Positions 22,162 through 42,610 of a stretch of DNA of 64,000 bases are shown here, piece by piece. The DNA comes from Plantactinospora sp. GCM10030261. Its GTDB lineage: Bacteria > Actinomycetota > Actinomycetes > Mycobacteriales > Micromonosporaceae. Each line of letters opens with the position of its first letter. Position 1 is the stretch's first letter. Under the pieces are notes generated by a model. That model did not search any database. It had not been told where the DNA came from and worked only from the letters and a program-made list of their open reading frames with translations. Both the position numbers and the translations under genes were made by a program. Location: assembly GCF_042666615.1 (NCBI RefSeq), contig NZ_JBHTDD010000005.1, positions 80,997-144,996 of the forward strand. Reading direction: 5' to 3'.

Positions 22162-22380
22162 CCGGCCATCATGGCGGGAGCCCGGTGACGGCGGGTCACC
22201 GGGCTCCCTTCAACCGGTCCTGGGGAGGTTCCGGAAGTCCATTCTCCGTGCGAGACATTCGGAATCGCACCCCTCATACCGTACGGTTCACCTGGCCGTA
22301 CCGGGGGGACGACCTCGGCCGTTCAGTCAGGTCGTGCCCCCGGTTCGCGGGCCACCGTCCCGGAGAGGTTGAATGGGGCG

Positions 22381-25035: not shown

Positions 25036-25082
25036 CTCCTCCGAGGATATGCCCGTCCGCCCGTGCGGGGTCAGGAGCGGCT

Positions 25083-27496
<2,414 letters not shown>

Positions 27497-28753: not shown

Positions 28754-30007
28754 GTGCGGGTACTTCTTCTCGGTGGGGGTGGGCGCGAGCACGCCCTGGC
28801 CCTCGGGCTGGGCGCCGACCCGGCCGTCACCCACTTGGTCGTGGCCCCTGGTAACCCGGGCATCGCCCAAGGTGCCGAGACACGGGCCGTCGACGCCACC
28901 GATCCGCAGGCGGTCGCGGCGCTGGCCACCGATGTCGCCGCGGATCTCGTGGTGATCGGTCCGGAGGCGCCGCTGGTCGCGGGGGTCGCCGACGCGGTGC
29001 GGGCCAAGGGGATCGCGGTGTTCGGCCCATCCGCCGCCGCGGCCAGCCTGGAGGGTTCGAAGTCGTTCGCCAAGGAGGTCATGGCGGCGGCCGGCGTGCC
29101 GACCGCCGGGGCCCGGACCTGCGGCACCGATGCCGAGGTTGCCGCCGCGCTCGACGAGTTCGGCCCGCCGTACGTGGTGAAGAACGACGGTCTCGCCGCA
29201 GGCAAAGGCGTGGTGGTCACCGGCGACCGGCACGCCGCGGAGCGGCACGCCCGCGACTGCGGCCGGGTGGTGGTGGAGGAGCACCTCGCCGGCCCGGAGG
29301 TCTCCCTGTTCGTCGTGACGGACGGTGAGGCGGCGCTGCCGCTGCTCCCGGCCCAGGACTTCAAGCGGATCGGCGACGGCGACACCGGTCCCAACACCGG
29401 CGGCATGGGCGCGTACGCCCCGCTGCCCTGGGCGCCACCGGACCTGGTGGACGAGGTCATGGCCACGGTGGTCCGACCCACTCTCGCGGAGATGCGCCGC
29501 CGCGGTACGCCGTTCAACGGGCTGCTCTACGTCGGGCTGGCCCTCACCGCCACCGGTCCTCGGGTGATCGAGTTCAACGCCCGGTTCGGCGACCCGGAGA
29601 CCCAGGCGGTGCTCGCGTTGCTGGACACGCCGCTGGCCGGCCTGCTGCACGCCGCCGCGACCGGCACCCTGGCCGACCATCCGCCGCTGCGCTGGCGTCC
29701 GGGGGCGGCGGTCACGGTGGTCGTCGCGGCGGCTGGTTATCCCGGTACGCCGCGCACCGGCGATCCGATCACCGGCGCCGACCGGCCGGGCGTCATCCAT
29801 GCCGGCACGGCTCGTTCCGCCGACGGCCGGCTGGTCTCCGCCGGCGGTCGCGTGCTCTGCGGTACGGCCACCGGGCCGACCCTCGCCGAGGCGCGGGAGG
29901 CCGCGTACGCGCTGGTGGACGGCATCGGCCTGGCGGGCTCCCAGCATCGGCGGGACATCGCCCGGGCGGCCGTCGAGGGCCGGGTGCCGGTCCCACCCAT
30001 CGACTGA
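28754..30007 (+). CDS. purD: Phosphoribosylamine--glycine ligase
   Basis: 'VRVLLLGGGGREHALA' N-terminus and ATP-grasp motifs; the GTG at 28754 fits the conserved start. Confidence 0.9.
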   Translation: MRVLLLGGGGREHALALGLGADPAVTHLVVAPGNPGIAQGAETRAVDATDPQAVAALATDVAADLVVIGPEAPLVAGVADAVRAKGIAVFGPSAAAASLEGSKSFAKEVMAAAGVPTAGARTCGTDAEVAAALDEFGPPYVVKNDGLAAGKGVVVTGDRHAAERHARDCGRVVVEEHLAGPEVSLFVVTDGEAALPLLPAQDFKRIGDGDTGPNTGGMGAYAPLPWAPPDLVDEVMATVVRPTLAEMRRRGTPFNGLLYVGLALTATGPRVIEFNARFGDPETQAVLALLDTPLAGLLHAAATGTLADHPPLRWRPGAAVTVVVAAAGYPGTPRTGDPITGADRPGVIHAGTARSADGRLVSAGGRVLCGTATGPTLAEAREAAYALVDGIGLAGSQHRRDIARAAVEGRVPVPPID

Positions 30008-30176
30008 CGACGTCGCCCGTGTCAGGACGCTCCCTGGCTCTTCGTGTGGGCGAGGACACCGACGGTGATTCAGCCGTTCGGCGGCCCTCTCCGGGTTGAC
30101 CTGGCGTGTCACCATCGCGCATGTTGACGGCGCTGATCATAGCGTTGACGACGATCGCGACGGGGGAGGTCAGTGC

Positions 30177-30854
30177 ATGGGTGGATTCCTCGGGGCCGTG
30201 CTCGAGTTCCCGACCGTGCTCTTCACCTTCCTGCTGGTCGTGGTGATCGGCTACTGGCTACTGGCGCTGACCGGCGTGCTCGACCTGGGAGACGGCGCCG
30301 ACGCGACCGCGGGATTGGACACCGACGCCGGCGCCGAGCCGGCCGGGCGCGGCGGCGCGGCCGGCACGCTGGCCGGTGTCGGTCTCGGTGCTGTCCCGCC
30401 GGGTGTGGTGGGTTCGTTGCTGGTGGCGGTGGCCTGGTTCGTCAGTCTTGCCGGCGGCGTCCTGCTGGACGCGCTCGGCTTCGGGCCGGTCGCCCGTATG
30501 GCGACCGGGTTCGCCGTGCTGGTCGTGGCGCTGCTCGGCGCCTGGCTGGTCTGCCGGTTGGTGGTGATGCCGCTGCGGCGGCTCTTCCCAGCCGGGTCGG
30601 AGGACACCCGCAGCGCCTTTGTCGGACGGCTGTGCGTGATCCGGACCGGCCGGGTGACCGCCGATTTCGGCCAGGCCGAGGTGACCGCCGATGACGGCTC
30701 GACGGCCATCGTGCAGGTGCGCCAACCCGGGGACGAGACGATGCGCGCCGGCAGCATGGCCCTCATCTATGACTATGAACCCCTCGGCGAGTTCTTCTGG
30801 GTGACGCTGGCCGGCGCCGCGTTCGACCAGCCGACGCCCCGTACGCCCACGTAA
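30177..30854 (+). CDS. NfeD/YqiJ-like membrane protein (TM helices plus C-terminal OB-fold)
   Basis: RBS 'GGGGGAGG'; N-terminal TM helices; C-terminal 'GRVTADFGQAEVTADDGSTAIVQVRQ...GSMALIYDYE' beta-barrel as in NfeD/DUF1449 partners of SPFH proteins. Confidence 0.75.
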   Translation: MGGFLGAVLEFPTVLFTFLLVVVIGYWLLALTGVLDLGDGADATAGLDTDAGAEPAGRGGAAGTLAGVGLGAVPPGVVGSLLVAVAWFVSLAGGVLLDALGFGPVARMATGFAVLVVALLGAWLVCRLVVMPLRRLFPAGSEDTRSAFVGRLCVIRTGRVTADFGQAEVTADDGSTAIVQVRQPGDETMRAGSMALIYDYEPLGEFFWVTLAGAAFDQPTPRTPT

Positions 30855-30953
30855 GCCCGCCCCCCGCCAATCCTCGACCCGCCCGCCCACGACGAGCCCG
30901 CGCACCGTGTGGGTTCGGCGAACCCGTGCCGTCCAATGAGACCCGAAGGGAGG

Positions 30954-33014
30954 ATGCGTGGCCCGCCCGCCGGCCGCGCAACTCACATGGATGTCATCTC
31001 CACCGGCCTCGGCGTCCTGCTCGCCGTCGTCCTCCTCATCGTCATCGTCCTGGCGATCATGGTCAGCCGACTCTTCAAGAAGGTCGAGCAGGGCAAGGCG
31101 CTGATCGTCTCGAAGGTGCGCCGGGTCGACGTGACCTTCACCGGTGCCGTCGTGCTGCCGGTCCTGCACAAGGCCGAGGTGATGGACATCTCGGTCAAGA
31201 CCATCGACATCGAGCGGTCCGGGCACGATGGCCTGATCTGCCGGGACAACATCCGCGCCGACATCAAAATCACGTTTTTTGTCCGGGTCAACAAGACCGT
31301 CGAAGACGTGATCAAGGTGGCACAGGCGATCGGTACCGCGCGGGCCAGCGACCAGCAGACCCTCCAGGCGCTGTTCAACGCGAAGTTCTCGGAGGCGCTG
31401 AAGACGGTCGGCAAGCAACTCGACTTCGTCGACCTCTACACCAAGCGGGACGAGTTCCGGGATCGGATCATCCAGGTCATCGGCACCGACCTCAACGGTT
31501 ACAGCCTCGAAGACGCGGCCATCGACATCCTCGAGCAGACCCCGCTCGACCAACTCGACCCGCGAAACATCCTCGATGCCCAGGGCATCCGAAAGATCAC
31601 TGAGCTGACCGCGGCCGAGCACGTGCGCACCAACGAATACCGGCGCAGCGAGGAGAAGGAGATCACCCGGCAGAACGTCGACGCCCGGGAGGCCATCCTG
31701 GAGCTGGAGCGGCGGGAGGCCGACGCGGAGGCGAAGCAGCGCCGCGAGGTCGAGACGATGCGGGCCCGCGAGGAGGCCGAGACCGCCCGGGTGCAGGCGG
31801 AGGAGCGGCTCAAGTCCGCCAGCGCGAACATCCGGACCGACGAGCAGTTGGGTATCCAGCACGAGAACCGCGCCCGGGAGATCGCCGTCGCGGAGAAGAA
31901 CCGGGAACGGGTCATCGCCATCGAGACCGAGCGGATCGAGAAGGACCGCATGCTCGAGGTGATCGGCCGGCAGCGGGAGACCGAACTGTCCACGATCGCC
32001 AAGGACAAGGAGGTCGAGGCCGAGAAGCGGGCGATCGCCGAGGTGATCCGGGAGCGGATCGCGGTCGAGAAGACCGTGGCCGAGCAGGAGGAGAACATCA
32101 AGCGCCTGCGGGTCGTCGAGGAGGCCGAGCGGACCCGCCAGGCGGTGGTCATCCAGGCCGAGGCCGAGGCCCAGGAGAACCTGGTCAAGGACATCAAGGC
32201 GGCCGAGGCGGCCGAGGCGGCGGCCAAGCACAAGGCCCGCGAGGAACTCGTGCTGGCCGAGGCCCGGCAGCAGGCGGCGGAGCTGGAGGCCCGGGCCAAG
32301 ATCCGGTTGGCGGAAGGCGTCCAGGCCGAGGCCGCGGCGAGCGGGCTGGCCGACGTCCAGGTCAAGGAGCGCAGCGCCGAGGCGATCGAGAAGGTCGGTC
32401 GCGCCGAGGTGGCCGTCGAACGCGAGCGTGCGATCATCGCCGCCGAGGCGGTCCGCGAGAAGCTCAAGGGCGAGGCGGAGGGCCTCACCGAGAAGGCCGC
32501 CGCGATGGCGGCGCTGGACGACGCGACCCGCGAGCACGAGGAGTACCGCATCCGGCTGGAAATGGAGAAGGAGGTCCGGCTCGCCGGCATAGATGTCCAC
32601 CGGCAGGTCGCCGAGGCACAGGCCATGGTGGTCTCGGCCGGTCTCGAGAAGGCGAACATTGACATCGTCGGCGGCGACAGCGTCTTCTTCGACAAGCTGC
32701 TCGGCTCGATCACGCTGGGCAAGAGCGTCGACGGGTTCATGAACCACTCGGACACCGCGCGTGGGCTCGCGAAGCCGTGGCTCGACGGAAGCTCGTCGTT
32801 CACCGACGACCTGACCAGAATGCTCGGCTCGATGGGCACCGCCGACATGCAGAACCTGACGATCTCGGCCTTCCTCCTCCAGCAGATCAAGGCGGGCGGG
32901 GCCGAGACGTCGGGCAAGCTGCGCGAACTGCTGGACGCGGCGCGGCGCCTGGGCGTTGCCGACGCGCCGCTGGCGGCCCTGACCGGAAACCGCGCGGTCC
33001 GGGCGGGTGAGTGA
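30954..33014 (+). CDS. Flotillin-family SPFH (band-7) protein, YqiK-like
   Basis: RBS 'GGGAGG' before ATG 30954; N-terminal TM helix; SPFH domain 'ALIVSKVRRVDVTFTGAVVLPVLHKAEVMDISVKTIDI'; long EA-rich coiled coil, C-terminal flotillin tail. Confidence 0.9.
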   Translation: MRGPPAGRATHMDVISTGLGVLLAVVLLIVIVLAIMVSRLFKKVEQGKALIVSKVRRVDVTFTGAVVLPVLHKAEVMDISVKTIDIERSGHDGLICRDNIRADIKITFFVRVNKTVEDVIKVAQAIGTARASDQQTLQALFNAKFSEALKTVGKQLDFVDLYTKRDEFRDRIIQVIGTDLNGYSLEDAAIDILEQTPLDQLDPRNILDAQGIRKITELTAAEHVRTNEYRRSEEKEITRQNVDAREAILELERREADAEAKQRREVETMRAREEAETARVQAEERLKSASANIRTDEQLGIQHENRAREIAVAEKNRERVIAIETERIEKDRMLEVIGRQRETELSTIAKDKEVEAEKRAIAEVIRERIAVEKTVAEQEENIKRLRVVEEAERTRQAVVIQAEAEAQENLVKDIKAAEAAEAAAKHKAREELVLAEARQQAAELEARAKIRLAEGVQAEAAASGLADVQVKERSAEAIEKVGRAEVAVERERAIIAAEAVREKLKGEAEGLTEKAAAMAALDDATREHEEYRIRLEMEKEVRLAGIDVHRQVAEAQAMVVSAGLEKANIDIVGGDSVFFDKLLGSITLGKSVDGFMNHSDTARGLAKPWLDGSSSFTDDLTRMLGSMGTADMQNLTISAFLLQQIKAGGAETSGKLRELLDAARRLGVADAPLAALTGNRAVRAGE

Positions 33015-36000
33015 GCCGGTGACCGCCGCGCAGCCGCGACCCGGTGCCGGTCCGGTGACGCCCGCCGGGGGCGCAGCCGGTCCGGCGCCGGACGCCGGCA
33101 CAGCTGCTGGTCCGGTGACGCCCGCCGGGGGCGCTGCCGGTCCGGTGACGGACGCCGGCACCGCAGCCGGCCCGGGGCTGGACGCCGGCAGCTACGAGGT
33201 GCTCCGGACCCGACTCGCCGACCGGGCCGCCGAACTGGCCCGCCGGGCGGATCGGCTGAACGCGGACCGACTCGCCGTGTTCGGTGGCACCGAACTGCGA
33301 CTGCTGGGCACCGAGCGGATTCGCACCAGACACAACTGCGTGCCTCGGGACATCGTGCCGATCGGCGGGCTGATGCTGTTCGGCTACAACGTCTTCATCG
33401 GTCTCAAGCCGGAGACGGAGGTCGACGACGTCTTCTCCCTGCACCGTTTTGTGCGGGAACCGGCCGAGGGCGGTCAGCCCGCCGACGGTGCCGGTCGACC
33501 GGCCGACGGTGCCGGTCGACCGGCCGACGGTGATGGTCAGCCCGCTGACGGTGCCGGTCGACCGGCCGGGAACAGCGGCGAGGACACCTTCCGGTTCGCC
33601 GACGTGCCGGCCGACGACCTGCCCGAGCTGCTCCGCGACCCGCAGTTCCGCCGCGACTTCGCCGAGCTGTACCGCTACTACCGGCAGACCCGGCTGCTGC
33701 AACTGCGCCGCTTGGGCGGTCGCCTGCTGGCGGTCTTCGCCACCGGCGAGCGGGCCGACGACATCCGGGTACTGCGCTGGCGGATCGGCACCGACGGCTC
33801 CGTCGAATACCTGGACAACCGGGGCGAGCGGGAGCACGTCTTCCCACCCGCTCATGACTTCGAGTGGATCGAGACGACCCGGGAAGACCACGTCCTCGGT
33901 CGGCATCCGCACGTCTCCATTCAGGGCAAGGTGTTCGTCGAGACGGTCGGGGGAACGCTTACCGTCAAGGTGGAGGACAACACCGAGTCCGGCGAGGGCA
34001 TCTACACCGAACCGGTCGACGAACCGTTGCAGAGCCTCGCCGACTCCGACATCCACTACGCGCCGGTCGGGCCGCTGATCCTGATGCGGCTGCGGCCGTA
34101 CCGGGAAACCACCTGGCGTCACCTGGTTTTCAACACCCTGACCAACGACGTCGTGCGGCTGGACGGGATAGGGACAGCCTGCCAGCGCCTGCCCGAGGAC
34201 CAGGGGATCATCTTCCCGGGCGGCTACTACCTGACCACCGGCGCCCGGCGCACCTTCGACACCGACGTGACCGACCTGGAGTTCGAGGGGGCCATCCGGT
34301 CCAGCAACGGCGAGGACGTGCTGTACGTCTTCCACGCCCGCGCTGAGGGTCGGTCGCTGCTGTTGCCGTACAACATGATTCGCAAGGAGGTCGGGACGCC
34401 GATTCCCGGGCACGGCTACTCGCTGTTCGAGGACGGCACGCTTGTCGTGTTCCGGGCCACGTCGGAGGAACCGACCCGGGTCCATCCGATGCAGATCTGG
34501 CAAACCCCGTACCTGTCCGAGAGCTACGCCGCCGCACAACCCGTCGGCACCGGGCCGCTGGAACGGGTCGGCAACGCCGATCTCGTCCGCGGCATCTCCG
34601 ACTGCCTGTCGGTGGCGCGCATGGTGGACGAGATGAGCCCGGCCGCGCCGGTCTTCGAGGCGTTGATCGCGGCCTGCGCACGGGCGTTCGACCACTACCA
34701 CTGGTTGGCGGACGAGGAGTTCGGGCGGCTCGCCGAACCGCTGACCGAGGTGCGGGCCACCGCCCAACAGGTGCTTGACGAGTTCGAGAAGGTCCAGTCG
34801 CTCACCGCGCACGCCAACGCCCAGGTGGACGAGGCGGAGGAGCGGATCGGCGCGCTGGTCCGGCGGGCCCACGGAGCCACCCCGCTCACCGCCGACGAGT
34901 GGATCCGGCAGCTCGCGGCGCTCCGTCAGGAGCAGGGCCACCTGGTCACCCTGCGGGAGTTGCGGTACGTCGACGTCGACCGGCTCGCCGGGCTGACCTC
35001 CCGGCTGGACGGGGAGCTGGACACCACGGGCCGCCGGGCGATCGAGTTCCTGCGCCGGGACGACGCGTTCGCCGGCTACGCGACCGAGGTGGACCGGCTG
35101 GCCACCGAGGCCAAGGAGATCGGAACGGCGGCCGAGGCCGGCCCGATCGCCGAGCGATTGGCCGAACACACCGCCGGCCTGCAGACGGTCACCGACGTGG
35201 TGAGCACGCTGGACATCGGCGACGCGACCGTTAGGACCGGCATCCTGGCCCGGGTCGGTGAGGTGCTCGGCGGCGTCAACCGGGCCCGTGCCCAGCTCGA
35301 CGCCCGCCGCCGGGATCTGCTCGCCGCCGAGGGACGGGCCGGGTTCGCGGCCGAGTTCGCGCTGCTCGGCCAGGCGATCACCGGAGCCCTGGCGGCGGCC
35401 GACACCGCCGAGAAGTGTGACGAGCAGCTCGGGCGGCTGCTGCTGCGGGTGGAGGACCTGGAATCCCGGTTCGCCGACTTCGACGACTTCCTGGCCGAGC
35501 TGGCCACCCGGCGTACCGACGTCTACGAGGCGTTCTCGGCCCGCAAGCAGACCTTGCTGGACGAGCGGGCCCGCCGGGCGGACCGGCTGGTCTCCTCGGC
35601 GGACCGCATCCTGGTGAGCGTGCAGCGGCGGCTGGCCGGGCTGCGCTCGCTCGACGAGGTGAACACCTACTTCGCCGGCGATCCGATGATCACCAAGCTG
35701 CGCTCGGTGGTCGAGGAACTGCGTACCCTGGGCGACCCGGTCCGGGCCGCGGAGCTGGACGGCCGGATCGGCGCCGCCCGGCAGGAAGCCGGGCGGGCCC
35801 TGCGGGATCGGCTCGACCTGTACTCCGACGGCGGCGCCACCGTGCGGTTGGGGCGGCACCGGTTCCCGGTCAACTCCCAACCCGTCGACGTCACGCTGAT
35901 CCCCCAGGACGGGCGGATGACGGTGGCGGTCACCGGAACCGACTACCGGGTCCCGGTCCGCGACGGGGTCCTGGACGGCGGCCGGGAGTTCTGGGACCAG

Positions 36001-38298
36001 CTTCTCGTCTCGGAGTCGCCGGAGGTCTACCGGGCCGAGTTCCTGGCCACCGCCATCCTGGCGGACGCCGAGGTCGGTCGGGATGGGCCGGACCTGGACG
36101 CGTTGCACCAGGCGGCCGTCGATCCGGACGCGTTGCGGGAGCTGGTGCGGGCGACGGCCGAGACCCGGTACGACGAGGGCTACGAGCGCGGCGTGCACGA
36201 TCGGGACGCCGCCGAGATCCTCGCCGCGCTGCTCCGCATGCACGCCGGCGTCGGGCTGCTCCGCTACCCGCCAGCCGCCCGCGCCGCGGCTCAACTGTTC
36301 TGGAGTCACGGCGCCGACGAGTCGGCCCGGACCGGCTGGGCGATGCGGGCCACCTCGCTGGCCCGGGCCCGGGCCCGGTTCGGTCGCCGCGCCGGCACGG
36401 CGGCGGCCCTCGACGAGTTGCACGCCGAGCTGGGTGGCGGCATCGATGAGTTCCTGCGCGATGCCGGCCTGCCCGGGCCGGCGGCCGAACACCGGCTGGC
36501 CGGGGAGTACCTGGCCGAGGAGCTGGCGCAGGCGCCGCCGGGCTTCGTCACCAGTGCCGGTGCCCGCGAACTGCTCCGCCGGTTCCGGGCCGCGCTGGGT
36601 GGCCCGCAGGCGCCGGCCGCCAAGGAACTCGGCGACGACCTGCGGGCCCTCGGTGACGACCTGGCCGCCCGGCACCAACTGGTCGAGGCGTGGCTCTCCG
36701 CCTTCCTGGCCGAGGCCGGGGCGGCCGGCACCGAGGCGGGTTCGGCCGGTGGCGAGGCGGGTTCGGCCGGTGGCGAGGCCGGCGCTGCGGACAGCAGCGC
36801 GGCCAGCGCGGTCGACCTCCCGGAAGCCGTGGCGATCGAAGTCTGTGGCGCCGGTCTGCCGCGGCACGATTCGGCCGCGACCCGCACCGAGACGGTGGGT
36901 GGGCTGCTCGGCGCCCATCCCCGGATCACCGGCTCGGCGCTGACCCTGCGGTTGGACGAGGTGCTTGCCCGAACCCGACGGTTCCGGGTGGAGCGGGTGC
37001 CCGCCTATCGGGAGTACCAGCGGCGGCGCAACGATCTGGTGGCGACGGAACGGGACCGGCTGCGGCTCGCCGAGTACCGCCCCAAGGTGATGAGCGCGTT
37101 CGTCCGCAACCGGCTGCTGGACGAGGTCTACCTGCCGTTGATCGGCGACAACCTGGCCCGCCAGCTCGGCTCGGCAGGCGACGGCGAGCGGGTCGACCAG
37201 ATGGGCCTGCTGTTGCTGATCTCGCCGCCGGGCTACGGCAAAACCACCGTCATGGAGTACGTCGCCAGCCGGCTCGGCCTCGTCTTCGTCAAGGTGAACG
37301 GGCCGGCGCTCGGCTCGGGGGTGACCTCGGTGGACCCCGCCGAGGCGCCGAACGCGACCGCGCGACAGGAGGTGGAGAAGATCTCCTTCGCCCTGGAGTG
37401 CGGCAGCAACGTGCTGCTCTATCTGGACGACATCCAGCACACCTCGCCGGAGCTGCTACAGAAGTTCGTCTCGCTGTGCGACGCGCAGCGCCGGATGGAG
37501 GGCGTCTGGGACGGCCGCACCCGCACGTACGACCTGCGCGGCAAGCGGTTCGCGGTGTGCATGGCCGGAAACCCGTACACCGAGTCGGGGCAGCGGTTCC
37601 GGGTGCCGGACATGCTCGCCAACCGGGCCGACGTGTGGAACCTCGGTGACGTGCTGGCCGGCCGGGAGGAGGTGTTCGCGCTGAGTTATCTGGAGAACGC
37701 GCTGACGTCGAACCCGGTGCTCGCGCCCGTGGCCGGACGGGAACGCGGCGACATCGAGTTGCTGGTCCGGATCGCCCGGGGCGACGGGTCGGTGCGCGCG
37801 GACCAGCTGGACCACCCGTACTCGCCGGTGGAACTCGAACAGATCGTCTCGGTGCTGCGCAAGCTGATCCGGGTGCAGCAGGTCGTGCTGGCGGCCAACC
37901 AGGCGTACATCGCCTCTGCCGCCCAGGCCGACGCGTCCCGTACCGAACCGCCGTTCCAGCTCCAGGGTTCGTACCGGAACATGAACAAGATGGCCGCCCG
38001 GATCGTCCCGGTGATGGACGACGAGGAACTGGAGGCGTTGATCGACGACCACTATGTCGGTGAGGCGCAGACCCTGGCCGCCGGCGCCGAGGCGAACCTG
38101 CTCAAGCTCGCCGAGTTGCGTGGCCGGCTCACCGACGAGCAGGCCCGACGGTGGGCCGAGGTGAAGGCCGGCTTCCTGCGGGCCAAGGCGCTCGGCGGTT
38201 CGGGTGACGACCCGGTGGACCGGGCGGTCGGCGCTCTGGGCCTGCTCGCCGACCGGGTCGGCGCCGTCCAGACCGCCATCGAACGCGCCGCCCGGTAA
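33007..38298 (+). CDS. 1763-aa giant protein: repeat-rich disordered N-terminus, ~1100-aa helical body, single C-terminal MoxR/AAA_5-like AAA+ ATPase domain
   Basis: The GTG start overlaps the flotillin stop by 8 nt. Tandem repeats 'PVTPAGGAAGP' (~33060-33180), 'ADGAGRPADGAGRP' (~33475-33570) and 'GSAGGEAGSAGGEAG' (~36750-36790). Walker A 'LLLISPPGYGKTT' (~37220), Walker B 'VLLYLDDIQH', and 'CMAGNPYTESGQRFRVPDMLANRAD' (sensor/Arg-finger-like, as in MoxR). Confidence 0.8.
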   Translation: MSEPVTAAQPRPGAGPVTPAGGAAGPAPDAGTAAGPVTPAGGAAGPVTDAGTAAGPGLDAGSYEVLRTRLADRAAELARRADRLNADRLAVFGGTELRLLGTERIRTRHNCVPRDIVPIGGLMLFGYNVFIGLKPETEVDDVFSLHRFVREPAEGGQPADGAGRPADGAGRPADGDGQPADGAGRPAGNSGEDTFRFADVPADDLPELLRDPQFRRDFAELYRYYRQTRLLQLRRLGGRLLAVFATGERADDIRVLRWRIGTDGSVEYLDNRGEREHVFPPAHDFEWIETTREDHVLGRHPHVSIQGKVFVETVGGTLTVKVEDNTESGEGIYTEPVDEPLQSLADSDIHYAPVGPLILMRLRPYRETTWRHLVFNTLTNDVVRLDGIGTACQRLPEDQGIIFPGGYYLTTGARRTFDTDVTDLEFEGAIRSSNGEDVLYVFHARAEGRSLLLPYNMIRKEVGTPIPGHGYSLFEDGTLVVFRATSEEPTRVHPMQIWQTPYLSESYAAAQPVGTGPLERVGNADLVRGISDCLSVARMVDEMSPAAPVFEALIAACARAFDHYHWLADEEFGRLAEPLTEVRATAQQVLDEFEKVQSLTAHANAQVDEAEERIGALVRRAHGATPLTADEWIRQLAALRQEQGHLVTLRELRYVDVDRLAGLTSRLDGELDTTGRRAIEFLRRDDAFAGYATEVDRLATEAKEIGTAAEAGPIAERLAEHTAGLQTVTDVVSTLDIGDATVRTGILARVGEVLGGVNRARAQLDARRRDLLAAEGRAGFAAEFALLGQAITGALAAADTAEKCDEQLGRLLLRVEDLESRFADFDDFLAELATRRTDVYEAFSARKQTLLDERARRADRLVSSADRILVSVQRRLAGLRSLDEVNTYFAGDPMITKLRSVVEELRTLGDPVRAAELDGRIGAARQEAGRALRDRLDLYSDGGATVRLGRHRFPVNSQPVDVTLIPQDGRMTVAVTGTDYRVPVRDGVLDGGREFWDQLLVSESPEVYRAEFLATAILADAEVGRDGPDLDALHQAAVDPDALRELVRATAETRYDEGYERGVHDRDAAEILAALLRMHAGVGLLRYPPAARAAAQLFWSHGADESARTGWAMRATSLARARARFGRRAGTAAALDELHAELGGGIDEFLRDAGLPGPAAEHRLAGEYLAEELAQAPPGFVTSAGARELLRRFRAALGGPQAPAAKELGDDLRALGDDLAARHQLVEAWLSAFLAEAGAAGTEAGSAGGEAGSAGGEAGAADSSAASAVDLPEAVAIEVCGAGLPRHDSAATRTETVGGLLGAHPRITGSALTLRLDEVLARTRRFRVERVPAYREYQRRRNDLVATERDRLRLAEYRPKVMSAFVRNRLLDEVYLPLIGDNLARQLGSAGDGERVDQMGLLLLISPPGYGKTTVMEYVASRLGLVFVKVNGPALGSGVTSVDPAEAPNATARQEVEKISFALECGSNVLLYLDDIQHTSPELLQKFVSLCDAQRRMEGVWDGRTRTYDLRGKRFAVCMAGNPYTESGQRFRVPDMLANRADVWNLGDVLAGREEVFALSYLENALTSNPVLAPVAGRERGDIELLVRIARGDGSVRADQLDHPYSPVELEQIVSVLRKLIRVQQVVLAANQAYIASAAQADASRTEPPFQLQGSYRNMNKMAARIVPVMDDEELEALIDDHYVGEAQTLAAGAEANLLKLAELRGRLTDEQARRWAEVKAGFLRAKALGGSGDDPVDRAVGALGLLADRVGAVQTAIERAAR

Positions 38299-38301
38299 CC
38301 C

Positions 38302-38330
38302 GGGCAACCTCGCACCGCCCCGACTCCGTT
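38302..38330 (+). promoter_or_regulatory. Candidate ECF-type promoter (GGCAAC-N18-CGTT) upstream of the second ECF sigma gene
   Basis: 'GGGCAACctcgcaccgccccgactcCGTT' resembles the ECF 'GGAAC-N16-17-CGTT' autoregulated promoter consensus. Spacing is 1 nt long. Confidence 0.35.
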
Positions 38331-38358
38331 TGATCGGTGTAGACGAGGGGGTGGCCGG

Positions 38359-38901
38359 TTGTCGGCGGACGTCGAGGGATACCGCGAGTACGTGACGGCG
38401 CGGCTGGATCCGCTGCGCCGGACGGCGTACCTGCTCTGCGGCGACTGGCACACGGCGGACGACCTGGTGTCGACGGCACTTGTGAAGCTGCTCCGCCACT
38501 GGCGTCGGGTGTCCCGGATGGACAACATCGACGCCTACGTCCGGCGGACGCTGCTGCGGGCCTGGCTCGACGAGCGGCGCCGGCCGTGGCGGCGGGAGGC
38601 GTCCTGGGCACAGGTGCCCGACGTTCCGGTGCCGGCCGGCGGCGCCAACCGGGTGACGGAGGGCAGTGACCAGACCGTCGACCGGCTCGCCATCCTCGCT
38701 CTGCTGGCCGAGTTGCCGCCCCGGCGGCGGGCCGTGCTCGTGCTGCGGTTTTTCTGCGACCTGTCGGTCGAGGAGACCGCCGAGGAGATGGGCTGCTCAC
38801 CGGGCACTGTGAAGAGTCAGACCGCCCGGGCGATCGAGTCGTTGCGCGCGCGACTCGCCCGCCCGGCGGTCGTCAGCGAGGGAGTACGCAACGATGGATG
38901 A
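38359..38901 (+). CDS. ECF sigma factor (SigE-type, TIGR02983-like)
   Basis: 'DLVSTALVKLLRHWRRV' sigma-2, 'LPPRRRAVLVLRFFCDLSVEETAEEMGCSPGTVKSQTARAIESLR' sigma-4; TTG start after 'GAGGGGG'. Confidence 0.8.
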   Translation: MSADVEGYREYVTARLDPLRRTAYLLCGDWHTADDLVSTALVKLLRHWRRVSRMDNIDAYVRRTLLRAWLDERRRPWRREASWAQVPDVPVPAGGANRVTEGSDQTVDRLAILALLAELPPRRRAVLVLRFFCDLSVEETAEEMGCSPGTVKSQTARAIESLRARLARPAVVSEGVRNDG

Positions 38902-39769
38902 CCTACCCAATCTGCTGCGCGCCGCGGCGACCGACCCGCCGCCGACCCGCCTCGACATCGACCGGCTGATCAACACCGAACGGCGCCGGTCCCGTACCCG
39001 GGCCTGGACCCTCACCGGCACCGGCGCCGCCGCGTTGGTGGCCGCCGTCCTGGTCATCCCGGCAGTGGTGGCCGGGCCCGGTGCCGGCCCGGTCGGCGGG
39101 GGACTGCCGGTCGCCGCCCCGAACGGCACCACCTCGGCCGCCACCCCGAACGGCACCACCCCGACCGCGGTCGCGCCCTGCGCGCCGGTCGTGCCCGAGG
39201 CGAGCGGGCCACCGGGGCCGTTGCAGTCGTACGACACGGTCCAGCCGCGGCCGACGGAGGCCCCGGATGACGCGGTCGTCCGGCTGACCCTGACGCTCAA
39301 CGAGACGCTCGCCCGAGCGTTGCCGGCCGGCAGCCGGGTGGAACCGGTGCAGCCGTCCTGCCGGCAACCGCAGTTCCAGTACGACCCCCAGCGCCGCGAG
39401 TACACGGCCGTCGCCCGGTTGCACCGCGATGACCGGGTCGGTGGCCTGATCGTGGTGCTCCAACCGAGCGGCACCCAGCGACTCGTCTGCATTCACACCG
39501 ACGACCCGAACGGCTGCCAGCGCAGCGAGTTGCCCGGCGGCGGACAACTGCTCGCCGAGGAGGTCGCCCCGGAGGGACCGACGGGGTTCGTGCAGCGTTC
39601 GCTGCTGCTGGAACGCCCGGACGGGACGACGGTGCGGTTCACGCTCACCAACACCGTGGAAACCAGACCGGAGCAGGGACCGCTGCCCAGCGGGAAACTC
39701 CCGCCATTGAGCCTGGCTGAGCTGACCGCTCTGGGCACCGAAGGCTCCGCTCTCACCCTGTATCCGTAG
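38894..39769 (+). CDS. Putative anti-sigma-factor-like membrane protein (partner of the upstream ECF sigma)
   Basis: Overlaps the sigma stop by 8 nt; short cytoplasmic N-terminus, a single TM helix 'GAAALVAAVLVIPAVVAG', and an extracytoplasmic C-terminal domain. Confidence 0.6.
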   Translation: MDDLPNLLRAAATDPPPTRLDIDRLINTERRRSRTRAWTLTGTGAAALVAAVLVIPAVVAGPGAGPVGGGLPVAAPNGTTSAATPNGTTPTAVAPCAPVVPEASGPPGPLQSYDTVQPRPTEAPDDAVVRLTLTLNETLARALPAGSRVEPVQPSCRQPQFQYDPQRREYTAVARLHRDDRVGGLIVVLQPSGTQRLVCIHTDDPNGCQRSELPGGGQLLAEEVAPEGPTGFVQRSLLLERPDGTTVRFTLTNTVETRPEQGPLPSGKLPPLSLAELTALGTEGSALTLYP

Positions 39770-39830
39770 GGCTCAGCCGACACCGGCGCCGGGCCGGCGG
39801 GCCGGCGAGGGGATCCGGCACCATGAACGG

Positions 39831-40376
39831 GTGCTGATCAGAGAAGCCACCCCCGAGGACTGGCCGGCGATCTGGCCGTTCCTGCGCCGGATCGTGGCCG
39901 CTGGCGAGACGTACGCGATGGACCGGGACATCACCGCGGACCGGGCGCGGACCTGGTGGATGCCGCCACCACCGACCCGCGTCGTGGTCGCGGTGGACGG
40001 TGCCGGCACGGTCGTCGGGTCGGCGAAGCTCTACCCCAACCACCCCGCGCAGGGCTCGCACGTGGGCAGCGCCAGCTTCATGGTGGACCCGGACCGCGCC
40101 GGGGAGGGAATCGGCCGGGCCCTCGGCGAGTACATCGTCGAACAGGCCCGCGCCGAGGGCTTTCGCGCCATGCAGTTCAACGCCGTGGTCGAGACGAACT
40201 CCTCGGCCGTACGGCTGTGGCGGTCGCTCGGTTTCGCGGTGCTCGCCACCGTGCCGGAGGCGTTCCATCATCCGGCGCACGGCTACGTGGGTTTGCACAT
40301 CATGCACCGCTGGCTTCGACGCTCACCTCCCGCGGCTGGGTCGACGCGATCAGGATCGCGATCGCCCCGCCGGTGA
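39831..40376 (+). CDS. GNAT-family N-acetyltransferase
   Basis: Acetyl-CoA-binding motif 'RAGEGIGRALGEYIVEQARAEGFRAMQ'. Confidence 0.8.
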   Translation: MLIREATPEDWPAIWPFLRRIVAAGETYAMDRDITADRARTWWMPPPPTRVVVAVDGAGTVVGSAKLYPNHPAQGSHVGSASFMVDPDRAGEGIGRALGEYIVEQARAEGFRAMQFNAVVETNSSAVRLWRSLGFAVLATVPEAFHHPAHGYVGLHIMHRWLRRSPPAAGSTRSGSRSPRR

Positions 40377-41685
40377 GGAGAAGCCCGTACGCCAGCGCGA
40401 AACCGGTGGTGCCGGCAACGGTGCTGAGCAGCGTCGCGGACACCGCGAGCAGCGCGGCCGCGGCCATGTTCTCGCCGGCTTGCAGCGCGGAACTGTATTG
40501 TCCGTGTTCGCTTTCGTCGGCCATGGACAGCGTCGCGCTGGAGATCCTCGGGTAGGCGATCCCCATGCCGATGCCCATGGCGACGCAGGCGCCGATGACG
40601 ACGACGAGGTGTGCCAGGTCGAGGGTGTAGAGCAGGACGCAGGCCGGTCCCGACGCGACCAGCGGCGCGGCCGAGCGGATGAGCAACCGGTGGGTGTCCG
40701 CGCCGCCGCCGAGGCGACCCTGTATCCAGGCCCCCGCCGCCCATCCGGTGGCCCCGATCGCGATGACGAGACCCGCTGTGGCCGGCGGGAAGCCCCGCTC
40801 ACCCTGGAGATAGAAGGTGAGGTACACGTCGCTCGCGGTGACGACGGCGCCGAGCATGGCTCTGAGCGCGACCAGCCGCTGCGGCGCTCCGCGAAGCCGC
40901 AGAGTCCCGGGCGGCAGGATTCGACTCGCCGTCACCACGAGGGCCACCAGAGCGATCGGTACCGCGATCACGGACTGCCGGGTTGGATGCTGCCCGCTGA
41001 GGTGCAGGACGAGGAGAAGTCCGGCGGCGACCACCGCGAGGACACCGGGTCGGCCGAACAGCGGGATGGCCATCCTGGGCGTACGGGTCCGAGGTGCGGT
41101 GTCCCGCGTGACGACCATCAGGCCGGCCAACGAGGCGGCCGCTCCGGCCAGGACGATGCCGAGCACCACCCTCCAGTTGGTGAGTTCGGTGAGCAGCCCC
41201 GCGAGCACTGGACCGATCATGGACGGCAGCAGCCACGCGGTGGTGAGCAGGCCGAACATCCGGGGGCGCAGTTCGGCCCGGATGTGCCGGGCGATGAGGA
41301 CGTAGAGCACCACCGAGTCGATTCCGCCGCCGACGCCCTGGAGCAACCGCCCCAGGACGAAGGCCGCGGCGTTGGGCGCCAGCCCACACATGGCGATCCC
41401 GACGACGAACAGTGTCCCGCCCACGGCGAGGGGAAGGCGTGGACCGCTGCGGTCGGCCCAGTTGCCGCCCACGATCATCCCGACGAGTGCCGTGGTGAGC
41501 GTGGCCGCGTAGGACAGGGAGTACCACCGCGTACCGTCGAGGTCCGCCATCGCCACCGGCAGCACGGTCGTGATCGCGAAGGACTCGAAGGCGATGAAGG
41601 TCATCAACGCCAACATGCTCGTGACGAACGGCCACCTGCGCGCCGTCCACAGCCGGTCGTGGCGTGGCTGCTGGTCGACGCTCAC
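40300..41685 (-). CDS. MFS transporter (drug:H+ antiporter-like)
   Basis: 12+ TM helices and MFS motif 'GNWADRSGPRLPL'. GTG start proposed at 41685, overlapping the upstream TGA (GTGA coupling); the ORF is open to 41871. Confidence 0.75.
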   Translation of the reverse strand: MSVDQQPRHDRLWTARRWPFVTSMLALMTFIAFESFAITTVLPVAMADLDGTRWYSLSYAATLTTALVGMIVGGNWADRSGPRLPLAVGGTLFVVGIAMCGLAPNAAAFVLGRLLQGVGGGIDSVVLYVLIARHIRAELRPRMFGLLTTAWLLPSMIGPVLAGLLTELTNWRVVLGIVLAGAAASLAGLMVVTRDTAPRTRTPRMAIPLFGRPGVLAVVAAGLLLVLHLSGQHPTRQSVIAVPIALVALVVTASRILPPGTLRLRGAPQRLVALRAMLGAVVTASDVYLTFYLQGERGFPPATAGLVIAIGATGWAAGAWIQGRLGGGADTHRLLIRSAAPLVASGPACVLLYTLDLAHLVVVIGACVAMGIGMGIAYPRISSATLSMADESEHGQYSSALQAGENMAAAALLAVSATLLSTVAGTTGFALAYGLLLTGGAIAILIASTQPREVSVEASGA

Positions 41686-42610
41686 CGCGGCATGCCAACC
41701 GCCAGGACGACCTTCCCACGGCCGTGACCGCTTTCCACGTCCCGGTGGGCGTCCGGCGCCTCGGCCAGTGGGTAGACGCGCCGGACATGCACGCGCAAGC
41801 GACCATCGGCGACCAGCAGGGCCAGCGTCGCCAACCGGGTGGCCGACCGTTGGCTCCGTAGCACGCGGCAACCAAGCGCGGCGGCGAGTCGCATGTCGAC
41901 GATGGTCGCGATCCGCGTGCGGTCGGCGACGAGTTCGACCGCGTCCCGCAGGTTATCGTGGCCAGCGGCGTCGAACGCCACGTCGATGGTGTCGGCGACC
42001 GCTCGGATCCGCTCCACCTGACCGTCCCCGTAGGCGACCGGCGTCGCTCCGAGCCCACGCAGGTACTCGTGGTTGACTTCGCTGGCCGTGCCGATCACTC
42101 GGGCGCCGGCGAGCCGGCCAGTTGGGTGAACATGCTTCCGACGCCGCCGGCCGCGCCGTGGACGACCACGGTCTCGCCAGCGGAGACGGACAGTTCCTCC
42201 AGTACGGTGTGCGCTGTCTGACCTGACGCCGAGAGCGCCCCGGCGGCCTGCCACCCGACCGGCTCGGGCTTGTGCACGATCTGGGACGCCGGGACCGAGA
42301 CGTACTCGGCGTAGCAGCCCAGGGTGTTGAAGCCCAGCACCGCGTCGCCGACCGAGAATCCGCGGACGGCCGGACCGACGGCCTCGACGGTGCCCGCGAA
42401 CTCGTTGCCGAGGATCTGCGGGAAGGCGATGGTCGCGCCGGGCGGCGTCCATCCCGCCCGGATAGCGGCGTCGGTGACCTGCACCCCGGCGTTCACCACC
42501 CGGACCAGCACCCGATCCGCCTCGGTGTCGGGGCGGGGCAGGTCGTGCATGCGAAGCGACTCTGGCGGGCCGAAGGAGTCGATGGCCGCCGCCTTCATCC
42601 GAGGGCTCAC
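41682..42610 (-). pseudogene. NADPH:quinone oxidoreductase / zinc-type alcohol dehydrogenase family, frameshifted
   Basis: The N-terminal 171 aa (42095-42610) carry 'MKAAAIDSFGPPESL...GETVVVHGAAGGVGSMFTQLAG'. They continue in a second frame with 'ARVIGTASEVNHEYLRGLGA...GKVVLAVG' (41682-~42120), so there is a single-nucleotide indel near 42110-42130. Confidence 0.6.

Follow-up and report, generated by a model that had tools for sequence, protein, structure and literature searches.

Three co-directional genes in the Plantactinospora window

The window, a 64,000-nucleotide stretch of DNA from Plantactinospora sp. GCM10030261, includes three genes in the same direction, as an earlier note on this DNA had proposed: the ORFs of g1 (30177..30854; 225 aa), g2 (30987..33014; 675 aa) and g3 (33007..38298; 1763 aa) were confirmed on the + strand, with GC3 values (0.89, 0.94 and 0.91, respectively) as expected for true genes in a 71% GC genome. 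The g3 product is 100% identical to protein P0001 of Plantactinospora sp. GCM10030261, and its N-terminus (MSEPVT) agrees with the Micromonospora orthologue P0003. The 8-nt overlap reported between g3 and g2 is present in the sequence (33007..33014, + strand; g3 GTG at 33007, g2 stop TGA at 33012-33014); start/stop overlaps were also found in many other loci if the giant ORF is taken to begin at its earliest in-frame start, a 4-nt overlap being frequent in actinomycetes. Strong ribosome binding sites had been claimed for all three genes; this is clear only for g1, whose ATG (30177) lies 7 nt downstream of GGGGGAGG, since GAAGGGAGG, probably the sequence previously taken as the g2 ribosome binding site, is 34 nt upstream of the start conserved in the orthologue alignment (ATG 30987). 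GAAGGGAGG abuts an alternative in-frame g2 start (ATG 30954).

The g1 gene encodes a YqiJ/DUF1449-like (NfeD2-type) inner-membrane protein, for which three transmembrane helices are predicted. It also has an acidic loop and, at the C-terminus, a soluble beta domain (aa ~145-205; 30609..30791, + strand), a candidate NfeD-type OB fold judging by its sequence. The Pfam search of g1 gave no match; the resemblance to NfeD/YqiJ proteins claimed in the earlier note holds on membrane architecture, gene position, a weak profile match to E. coli YqiJ (hhalign 56.6% probability, E 1.1e-4), and the names of the orthologues in public sources ("DUF1449 family" or "OB-fold-containing"). It is the beta domain that aligns to the YqiJ C-terminus, and its conserved pattern (alignment A4) is VG..C.v.T..V...fGqAe...G......V......L..G..alv..yD.

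The g2 product is a YqiK-type (SPFH2) flotillin, as previously suggested, based on Pfam, synteny and homology to E. coli YqiK (29% identity over 500 aa, E 2e-39). A single hydrophobic segment, the membrane anchor, is predicted at its N-terminus, followed by the SPFH/Band_7 domain (aa 32-179; 31080..31523, + strand; PF01145, E 1.9e-7), which is the best-conserved block of alignment A5, and by a long Glu/Ala-rich helical region. The protein ends in a C-terminal extension (aa ~555-675; 32649..33011, + strand) conserved in giant-linked flotillins and a candidate docking element for the giant: the motif IDIVGGDG.FFD...GKAVDGF...YL.G...L..D...NL..ALL is common to 11 of these flotillins and is absent beyond "VGG" in the single negative control, E. 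coli YqiK, a flotillin unaccompanied by a giant.

The giant protein and its AAA+ module

Translation and Pfam searches (DUF3686, 712 bits, E 2.7e-214) assign g3 to a family combining DUF3686, DUF7902 and a C-terminal AAA+ module, with relatives in at least 588 species genomes. The earlier note could not assign the giant to any characterised family; the family is indeed uncharacterised, but g3 is no orphan. The only "function" attached to this large family is an unsupported database name: PF12458 is described as "ATPase involved in DNA repair", and PGAP names the family "DNA repair ATPase". These names are all that favours a role in DNA repair, which we consider highly improbable: g3 has neither a DNA-binding nor a nuclease domain, nor an ABC ATPase domain of the SMC/Rad50 type, and its NTPase is the C-terminal AAA+ module; NCBIfam gives only sub-threshold RuvB matches restricted to the P-loop, with 16 bits where 282 would be required; the gene that always accompanies g3 encodes a membrane scaffold and is no repair gene; and support for the name was not found in the literature searched.

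Transmembrane prediction gave no segment in g3, indicating a cytoplasmic protein. According to the AlphaFold models, its order is: N-terminal helix, diverged beta-propeller, helical bundles of ~430 aa, small beta domain, helical domain, AAA+ module and helical tail. The N-terminal ~1300 aa had been read as a helical scaffold; the helical bundles are indeed present, but a beta-propeller-like domain of ~400 aa was missed, which contains ~25 strands and many invariant residues and forms, together with the N-terminal helix, the DUF3686 domain (aa 76-565; 33232..34701, + strand). The rod of helical bundles (aa ~505-937; 34519..35817, + strand) includes DUF7902 (aa 686-769; 35062-35313, + strand), and the small beta domain (aa ~945-983; 35839..35955, + strand; residues 891-929 of the AF2 model, partly low confidence) lies between two helical regions. 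The C-terminal helical domain, lid plus tail (37807..38295, + strand), has invariant columns and helices with pLDDT ~90; it harbours the invariant motif EPPF.LQGSYRNMN (aa 1647-1661; 37945-37989), whose R1657 may play a sensor-2-like role.

The disordered repeat linkers proposed for g3 correspond to three tandem-repeat inserts detected by TRF on the + strand, which largely coincide with pLDDT values below 50: insert 1 (33045..33190; repeating every 30/60 nt) belongs to the N-terminal tail and for the most part precedes the modelled region, whose N-terminal residues 1-5 have pLDDT < 50; insert 2 (33458..33568; PADGAGR x 4-5, 21-nt period) occupies a DUF3686 loop, with pLDDT 34-49 at model residues 102-136; and insert 3 (36709..36782; GEAGSAG x 3.5, 21-nt period) is part of the helical domain that precedes the AAA+ module, with pLDDT < 50 at residues 148-159 of the C-terminal model. 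Orthologues could be compared for two of the three inserts: insert 1 is variable or absent, and insert 2 is absent in P0116 and P0035.

All the ATPase motifs announced in the earlier note, including AGNP...RFRVPDMLANRAD (aa 1520-1542), were found in the AAA+ module (aa ~1365-1600; 37099..37806, + strand), which has a pre-sensor-1 beta-hairpin. The Walker A motif SPPGYGKTT (aa 1406-1414; 37222..37248, + strand) is invariant in alignments A1, A3 and A6. The Walker B motif LLYLDD (aa 1470-1475; 37414..37431, + strand) has the family-invariant form DD-IQH, not DE (D1474, D1475, I1476, Q1477 and H1478 are all invariant), and this could mean that the module is a switch and not a motor. In the segment AGNPYTESGQRFRVPDMLANRAD (aa 1520-1542; 37564..37632, + strand), GNPYTE, PDML and N1539-R1540 are invariant; the model suggests N1522 as the putative sensor 1 and R1540 as the putative arginine finger. 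Across 18 relatives, with identities as low as 30%, the core residues SPPGYGKTT, DDIQH, GNPYTE and PDML.NR do not vary. At the pore-loop position, neither the model nor the alignment shows an aromatic residue. The nearest solved folds are the MoxR proteins NorQ and CbbQ, in agreement with the MoxR-like character proposed, albeit by a small margin; AAA_5 is just above the Pfam cut-off, AAA_3 (MoxR) gave no Pfam match, and the sequence-level match to solved proteins is limited to the Walker A stretch. The reported lack of a VWA partner gene was confirmed among the neighbours tested and the other annotated loci.

Distribution and gene neighbourhood

The flotillin gene is directly upstream of the giant gene in all the loci with upstream DNA (82/82), and the g1 orthologue precedes the flotillin gene in 69. 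These loci come from Actinomycetota, Myxococcota, Gammaproteobacteria and one Clostridia MAG, and Deinococcus is added by plasmid records; the triad has unrelated flanks in Nocardiopsis, Saccharothrix, Simiduia, Psychrobacter, Deinococcus, Proteus, the plasmid pQBR103 and an unassigned metagenomic contig. The flotillin identity to the window broadly tracks that of the giant across lineages. The g1 gene is decayed in 13 Streptomyces loci, indicating that it is not essential to the flotillin-giant pair. The operon is real, widely conserved and horizontally mobile, and the distribution of the giant is tied to that of flotillin, which supports the envelope-linked, flotillin-associated system envisaged in the earlier note; the position between purD and an ECF sigma gene, used there as an argument, has no such value, because those neighbours are common only to Micromonosporaceae. 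The earlier note had named two results that would speak against it, membership of a well-characterised family distributed independently of flotillin/NfeD and a lack of conserved synteny; both were checked, and neither refuted the proposal.

This operon type, considered previously an uncharacterised system, is uncharacterised experimentally (no experiments on any DUF3686-family giant were found in the literature searched), but its architecture was already reported by Ravi et al. 2024 (mSystems, PMC11237479) as a PspA-linked module, including an abbreviated form widespread in bacteria and archaea; a chaperone-like role of the operon in membrane dynamics was proposed there. The novelty is much lower than initially assumed. 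The Ravi operon (CesT/Tir-PspA, YqiJ/YuaF, Band-7/flotillin and beta-propeller/coiled-coil/AAA+ ATPase) encodes these three proteins in the order seen in the window, as illustrated by Dokdonia donghaensis in the supplement of that work (YqiJ-YuaF, Band-7+CC+flotillin, beta-propeller+CC+AAA). The window lacks the YjfI/PspA pair and the PLD gene of the full form, and no PspA gene was found in its 64 kb; it corresponds to the abbreviated form, the longer versions having YjfI (CesT-like) and then a protein of the PspA/IM30 family at their start. The full form, with orthologues of the window genes, was recovered in Simiduia (DUF2170(YjfI)-PspA-g1-g2-giant) and in pQBR103 (YjfI-PspA-rhomboid-DUF2491-DUF350-DUF1190-GspS-like-g1-SPFH-giant); a YjfJ-type PspA was detected by phmmer in one of the ~85 loci scanned (Simiduia, L086), and pQBR103 carries one by annotation. 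Ravi et al. neither named the family of the ATPase nor described its structure, motifs or mechanism; the present analysis contributes the DUF3686/DUF7902 link, the MoxR-like fold, the DD form of Walker B, the lack of an aromatic pore loop and the conserved tail of the flotillin.

The patchy distribution in several phyla, the presence on megaplasmids (pQBR103, Deinococcus and Streptomyces plasmids) and the UvrD-like helicase and DNA methyltransferase encoded a few kb upstream on pQBR103 would fit an anti-phage or conflict system, in which a membrane protein and a large NTPase that senses through its propeller would cause membrane damage or abortive infection. However, this is very unlikely: PADLOC gave no meaningful match (only IetA/mad8, E ~0.01, over the P-loop); there were no relatives in 50,697 phage records; g1, g2 and g3 have no effector domain (nuclease, TIR, pore-former or protease); conservation is very strong, unlike that of fast-evolving defence genes, the identity of the AAA region being 58-62% between the window and Gammaproteobacteria or Deinococcus; the window flanks are housekeeping genes; and the genes added in the extended operons are PspA/YjfI envelope-stress genes. 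Support was looked for in favour of a defence or a DNA-repair role, and none was found.

Proposed function and comparison with known systems

We propose, with a probability of roughly 0.6, that the giant is an AAA+ remodeller dedicated to flotillin, which works without threading and serves membrane maintenance. Aided by the YqiJ-like protein, the flotillin would oligomerise into SPFH assemblies at the cytoplasmic side of the membrane, and the soluble giant would dock on these; this putative physical contact, suggested by gene order, would probably involve the N-terminal helix and the beta-propeller-like domain of the giant and the family-specific C-terminal extension of the flotillin. The giant would oligomerise via its single MoxR-like AAA+ module. 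Its ATP turnover, presumably slow and regulated given a Walker B of DD instead of DE, would act on the assemblies through the long helical arms and may thereby assemble, open or recycle the flotillin scaffold or the proteins that it holds; the giant would not thread polypeptides, because the module has no aromatic pore loop. The physiological role may be membrane stress tolerance and repair, alongside PspA-type systems. The dedication to flotillin is supported by the 82/82 linkage, the triads with unrelated flanks, the overlaps and the shared flotillin tail; and the link to PspA, by the long forms of Simiduia and pQBR103. The proposal also draws on the membrane-dynamics role suggested by Ravi et al., on the established pairing of SPFH2 with NfeD2 proteins (PMC2636767) and on the stabilisation of unfolded proteins by S. 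aureus FloA-NfeD (PMC11222466).

MoxR proteins such as NorQ and CbbQ mature specific client complexes and, being the nearest folds, suggest another function, possible but distinctly less probable: the flotillin and the YqiJ-like protein would hold unfolded or unassembled membrane-proximal proteins, and the giant would be an ATP-dependent MoxR-type maturation factor acting on these clients, not on flotillin, its beta-propeller replacing the VWA adaptor of the classical MoxR systems. The many invariant residues of the propeller-like domain, suggesting a defined ligand, are consistent with this, as is the chaperone-like assembly role favoured by Ravi et al. (PMC11237479). Moreover, FloA-NfeD of S. 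aureus is a holdase that needs no ATP to stabilise unfolded proteins (PMC11222466), leaving room for an ATP-dependent partner. However, the operon has no conserved client gene, flotillin is the sole universally co-inherited partner, and the conserved tail of this flotillin subfamily points to a direct giant-flotillin relationship, as in the flotillin remodeller we prefer.

The window resembles the NfeD2-SPFH2 operons YqiJ-YqiK of E. coli and YuaF-FloT of B. subtilis (Hinderhofer et al. 2009, PMC2636767), in which a flotillin follows a small protein that has several TM segments and ends in a beta domain. YqiK and FloT share with g2 the N-terminal anchor, the SPFH domain and the Glu/Ala-rich coiled coil; compared with YqiK, g2 has ~120 additional aa and carries the conserved C-terminal extension. 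Unlike the window, E. coli K-12 has no third gene after yqiK and, to our knowledge, neither has the B. subtilis operon. The MoxR class (NorQ, CbbQ, RavA) comprises stand-alone enzymes of ~250-500 aa with a VWA/MIDAS partner, whereas the g3 module is located at the end of a 1763-aa protein, with no VWA gene and with DD instead of DE in Walker B. In HflK/C-FtsH, an SPFH-family scaffold is functionally paired with an AAA+ ATPase at the membrane, a precedent for SPFH assemblies organising or regulating ATP-driven machines; FtsH, a protease anchored in the membrane and belonging to the classical AAA clade, is housed in a periplasm-facing HflK/C cage and threads substrates, whereas g3 is soluble, cytoplasmic, devoid of a protease domain and of a different AAA+ clade. 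Vps4 with ESCRT-III follows the same concept, a dedicated AAA+ enzyme recycling a membrane-bound polymeric scaffold; PspA is a member of the ESCRT-III superfamily, and a protein of the PspA/IM30 family is encoded beside the triad in the long operon forms.

A flotillin gene next to a giant AAA+ gene

Three open reading frames run in the same direction from 30177 to 38298, with GC3 values (0.89, 0.94 and 0.91) at the level of real genes. The first, g1 (30177-30854, + strand), encodes a YqiJ-like membrane protein of 225 aa and starts 7 nt downstream of GGGGGAGG. The second, g2 (30987-33014, + strand), encodes a YqiK-type flotillin of 675 aa, most likely starting at the ATG at 30987, which is favoured by the alignment of orthologues; GAAGGGAGG, near this start, abuts an alternative ATG at 30954. 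The third, g3 (33007-38298, + strand), encodes a giant protein of 1763 aa from a GTG start that overlaps the stop codon of g2 by 8 nt, and its product matches protein P0001 of Plantactinospora sp. GCM10030261 at 100%. The earlier note had described this arrangement from the sequence, and the direction of the genes and the 8-nt overlap between g3 and g2 were confirmed. A promoter and terminator scan of 29900-38600 returned no sites.

The g2 protein has a hydrophobic segment within aa 1-34 that forms an N-terminal anchor, an SPFH/Band_7 domain (PF01145, aa 32-179, E 1.9e-7, 31.7 bits, cut-off 23.6) and, after it, a long helical region rich in Glu and Ala. It is 29% identical to the Escherichia coli flotillin YqiK over 500 aa (E 2e-39), and searches of PDB sequences with it gave nothing. 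Orthology to FloT was rejected, because g2 reached 18 bits on the NCBIfam FloT equivalog, far under its threshold of 700. The flotillins linked to giant genes are approximately 90-180 aa longer than YqiK and have in common a conserved C-terminal extension that is absent from YqiK, the sole control.

The g1 protein comprises three hydrophobic segments followed by a conserved, soluble block, about 70 aa long, at the C-terminus, which is the layout of the NfeD2/YqiJ (DUF1449) proteins: several N-terminal transmembrane helices and a soluble C-terminal domain. Direct matches were missing: Pfam returned nothing for g1, NfeD and YqiJ models included, even at E = 10; 19 members of its family had no match to an NfeD or YqiJ model at E = 0.1; pairwise BLAST against E. 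coli YqiJ was not significant; and a profile search of PDB sequences gave nothing. The profile of the g1 family aligned with E. coli YqiJ over 137 columns in register (hhalign probability 56.6%, E 1.1e-4), and many g1 orthologues are named 'DUF1449 family' (the YqiJ family) or 'OB-fold-containing' in UniRef and NCBI. Both the architecture of g1 and its place upstream of an SPFH2 flotillin agree with the NfeD2-SPFH2 pairing rule (Hinderhofer et al. 2009, PMC2636767). On the basis of the profile alignment, the orthologue names, the architecture and the gene position, g1 is treated here as YqiJ-like, with a candidate OB fold.

Conservation of the flotillin-giant pair

Relatives of the giant protein were found in at least 588 species (one genome per species), and the best 80 loci among them come mainly from Actinomycetota; among the rest are Myxococcus, Corallococcus and one MAG each of deltaproteobacteria, Clostridia and Thermoanaerobaculia. 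In all 82 loci having upstream DNA (the best-scoring loci and others fetched), the gene immediately upstream of the giant gene encodes a flotillin orthologue, and in 69 related loci, as in the window, the flotillin directly follows a g1 orthologue. No g1 was detected in 13 Streptomyces loci, with flotillin and giant intact; the clearest case is L039, which retains fragments of g1 only (the Streptomyces loci observed include L035, L039, L042, L046 and L064). The flotillin-giant pair is therefore the conserved core: the giant gene is co-inherited with the flotillin gene, their start and stop codons overlapping. In the Streptomyces loci L035 and L046, g1 is truncated ahead of its C-terminal beta domain.

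The flanks of the triad are unrelated from genus to genus. In organisms further removed, triads whose giant is about 30% identical to that of the window occur in Psychrobacter and in an unassigned lineage, and others were found on a Deinococcus megaplasmid, on the chromosome of Proteus mirabilis and on the Pseudomonas fluorescens megaplasmid pQBR103. The Proteus mirabilis triad (NZ_OL790811.1: 3495769-3503707) consists of unannotated ORFs of 209, 731 and 1644 aa, on a replicon of 4.08 Mb that is filed as 'plasmid' in PLSDB. A long ORF that appeared to be a flotillin-giant fusion in Glycomyces was rejected as Rosetta-stone evidence, being a wrong-frame, Arg-rich artefact.

Of the genes beside the triad in the window, purA, purD and that for an ECF sigma factor are shared with Micromonosporaceae loci only and therefore lie outside the system; the ECF sigma/anti-sigma pair and purD were rejected as parts of it. 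The pair occupies 38359-39769 and encodes a Sigma70_r2/r4 protein and, from a second gene that overlaps the first by 8 nt, a protein of 291 aa. The latter has a single predicted transmembrane segment and no Pfam match, and is plausibly an anti-sigma factor. The sigma gene lies downstream of the giant gene in two of four Micromonosporaceae loci (L010 and L027), and the putative anti-sigma gene in L027 only. Other ORFs were observed at both sides. Upstream, a 455-aa ORF (20842-22209, - strand; SLOG cluster4, PF18306, E 8e-8) adjoins a 745-aa ORF without Pfam match (22864-25101, - strand), both with gene-like GC3. Beyond the putative anti-sigma gene, a stretch of approximately 2.3 kb (39770-42095) contains long ORFs overlapping on both strands; the likelier genes by GC3 are 39831-40376 (+ strand), with an N-terminus that resembles acetyltransferases by eye, and 40300-41871 (- strand), and Pfam had no match for two ORFs of this region.

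Domains and predicted fold of the giant protein

The giant protein matches DUF3686 (PF12458, 'ATPase involved in DNA repair') at aa 76-565 (712 bits, E 2.7e-214) and DUF7902 (PF25472) at aa 686-769 (106 bits). At aa 1402-1526, AAA (25.8 bits, cut-off 21.2) and AAA_5 (24.4 bits, cut-off 22) both score just over their cut-offs; AAA_22 was under its own, and there was no AAA_3 match at E ≤ 0.01. The same architecture, PF12458 and PF25472 followed by a C-terminal AAA+ module, is present in more than 200 relatives among the matches listed, and the N-terminal half has matches in about 930 clusters at 50% identity.

The relatives number thousands, most of them called 'DNA repair ATPase' by PGAP, a name for which the evidence here gives no support. 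Pfam, NCBIfam and fold searches found neither the coiled-coil-split ABC head of SMC, Rad50 and RecN nor a DNA-binding or nuclease domain, the NTPase being a single C-terminal AAA+ module. A role in DNA repair was rejected: neither the domains nor the genomic context gave a sign of it, and none of the papers searched backed it.

Two AlphaFold2 models, built from a 41-sequence alignment, cover aa 55-1150 (pLDDT 83) and aa 1100-1763 (pLDDT 85). They predict, from the N-terminus, a helix; a domain rich in beta structure, with about 25 strands (aa ~98-499); long helical bundles spanning about 430 aa; a small beta domain; a further helical domain; the AAA+ module; and a helical tail. The N-terminal two-thirds are thus not purely helical, which corrects the earlier note. 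The disordered repeat linkers of that note correspond to three tandem-repeat inserts (+ strand), for most of which the model confidence is low; these inserts are lineage-specific where homologues allow comparison. The protein is predicted to be cytoplasmic, since it has no transmembrane segment.

Every motif string quoted in the earlier note (Walker A, Walker B and the sensor/Arg-finger stretch) is present in g3. The modelled AAA+ fold is nearest to MoxR members and includes a pre-sensor-1 beta-hairpin; sequence searches of solved structures showed resemblance at the Walker A stretch only. The Walker B (37414-37431, aa 1470-1475 in g3) carries, in the whole family, an invariant LDDIQH, not the canonical hhhhDE. 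DnaA carries a similar motif, LLIDDIQF, and this analogy suggests that the enzyme is active but hydrolyses ATP slowly or under regulation. In AAA+ enzymes that thread their substrates, the pore loop has an aromatic residue; the family consensus at that position (GPSLGH.V.SLDP.EAPNATAR) has none, so that the AAA+ fold is MoxR-like but lacks such a pore loop. The giant differs from the MoxR-class ATPases in lacking a canonical Walker B DE and a VWA/MIDAS partner, none being found among the tested neighbours in the window, nor among the annotated genes around eight other loci.

Possible function and relation to known systems

[quoted passage not shown] The triad offers a candidate, the giant, for regulating flotillin assemblies at the expense of energy, and in no sampled locus was the giant seen apart from flotillin. 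The arrangement is real, and its interpretation in the earlier note, a flotillin-linked AAA+ membrane system, is supported. The giant would dock on cytoplasmic flotillin assemblies, plausibly through contacts of its propeller and helix with the flotillin tail; it would oligomerise via the AAA+ module, and under membrane stress ATP use would drive the remodelling of the flotillin scaffold or of what it contains. A more specific reading, to which we give a probability of roughly three in ten, makes the giant an ATP-driven remodeller dedicated to flotillin (SPFH) cages: it would dock on the family-specific C-terminal tail by propeller-and-helix arms, and its non-threading MoxR-like AAA+ ring would open, close or recycle the cage, serving SPFH scaffolds as Vps4 serves ESCRT-III. 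If this is true, flotillin assembly would gain its first known energy-dependent regulator, which would also explain the turnover of otherwise static SPFH domes under membrane stress.

In the main rival reading, the giant would mature clients held by flotillin and NfeD, as an ATP-dependent complement to a holdase; ATP-independent holdase activity was shown for FloA-NfeD of Staphylococcus aureus (PMC11222466). An anti-phage defence role is unlikely and was rejected: PADLOC had no match for g1 or g2 and only P-loop-level noise for g3 (E ~0.01), and the phage collection searched gave no match. The value of the locus resides in the experimental question that it poses; its functional interest is moderate, the giant being a testable candidate, and it is present where genetics are likely feasible (Streptomyces, Proteus mirabilis and pQBR103).

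The literature searched had no mention of DUF3686/PF12458, no link of 'DNA repair ATPase' to flotillin and no experimental work on the giant. Papers on SPFH proteins of Streptomyces and Pseudomonas deal with other SPFH paralogues and do not mention it, and the paper on MoxR-centred conflict systems (PMC7159879) describes no SPFH link. The operon type was published by Ravi et al. in 2024 (mSystems, PMC11237479), so that the novelty of the locus is low. Two loci connect the published operon with orthologues of the genes in the window, the triad being occasionally fused into PspA envelope-stress operons: in Simiduia, DUF2170(YjfI)-PspA precedes the triad, and pQBR103 of P. fluorescens SBW25 (NC_009444.1: 84437-97641, L089/L090) carries the longest version among the loci examined, YjfI-PspA-rhomboid-DUF2491-DUF350-DUF1190-glutathionylspermidine-synthase-like (GspS-like)-g1-SPFH-giant. 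On pQBR103 there is also a gene of the PLD family, about 8 kb downstream. Ravi et al. also report the same gene order in Dokdonia (supplement), and abbreviated operons without PspA as widespread (PMC11237479).

Searches by tblastn with the E. coli and Simiduia YjfI/YjfJ proteins found nothing in the 64-kb window. It therefore differs from the full form of Ravi et al., with CesT/YjfI-like and PspA/IM30 genes directly upstream, and fits their abbreviated form, for which the flotillin, the YqiJ-like protein and the AAA+ ATPase suffice (PMC11237479). The window is an instance of this published gene neighbourhood, and the locus itself is not new.
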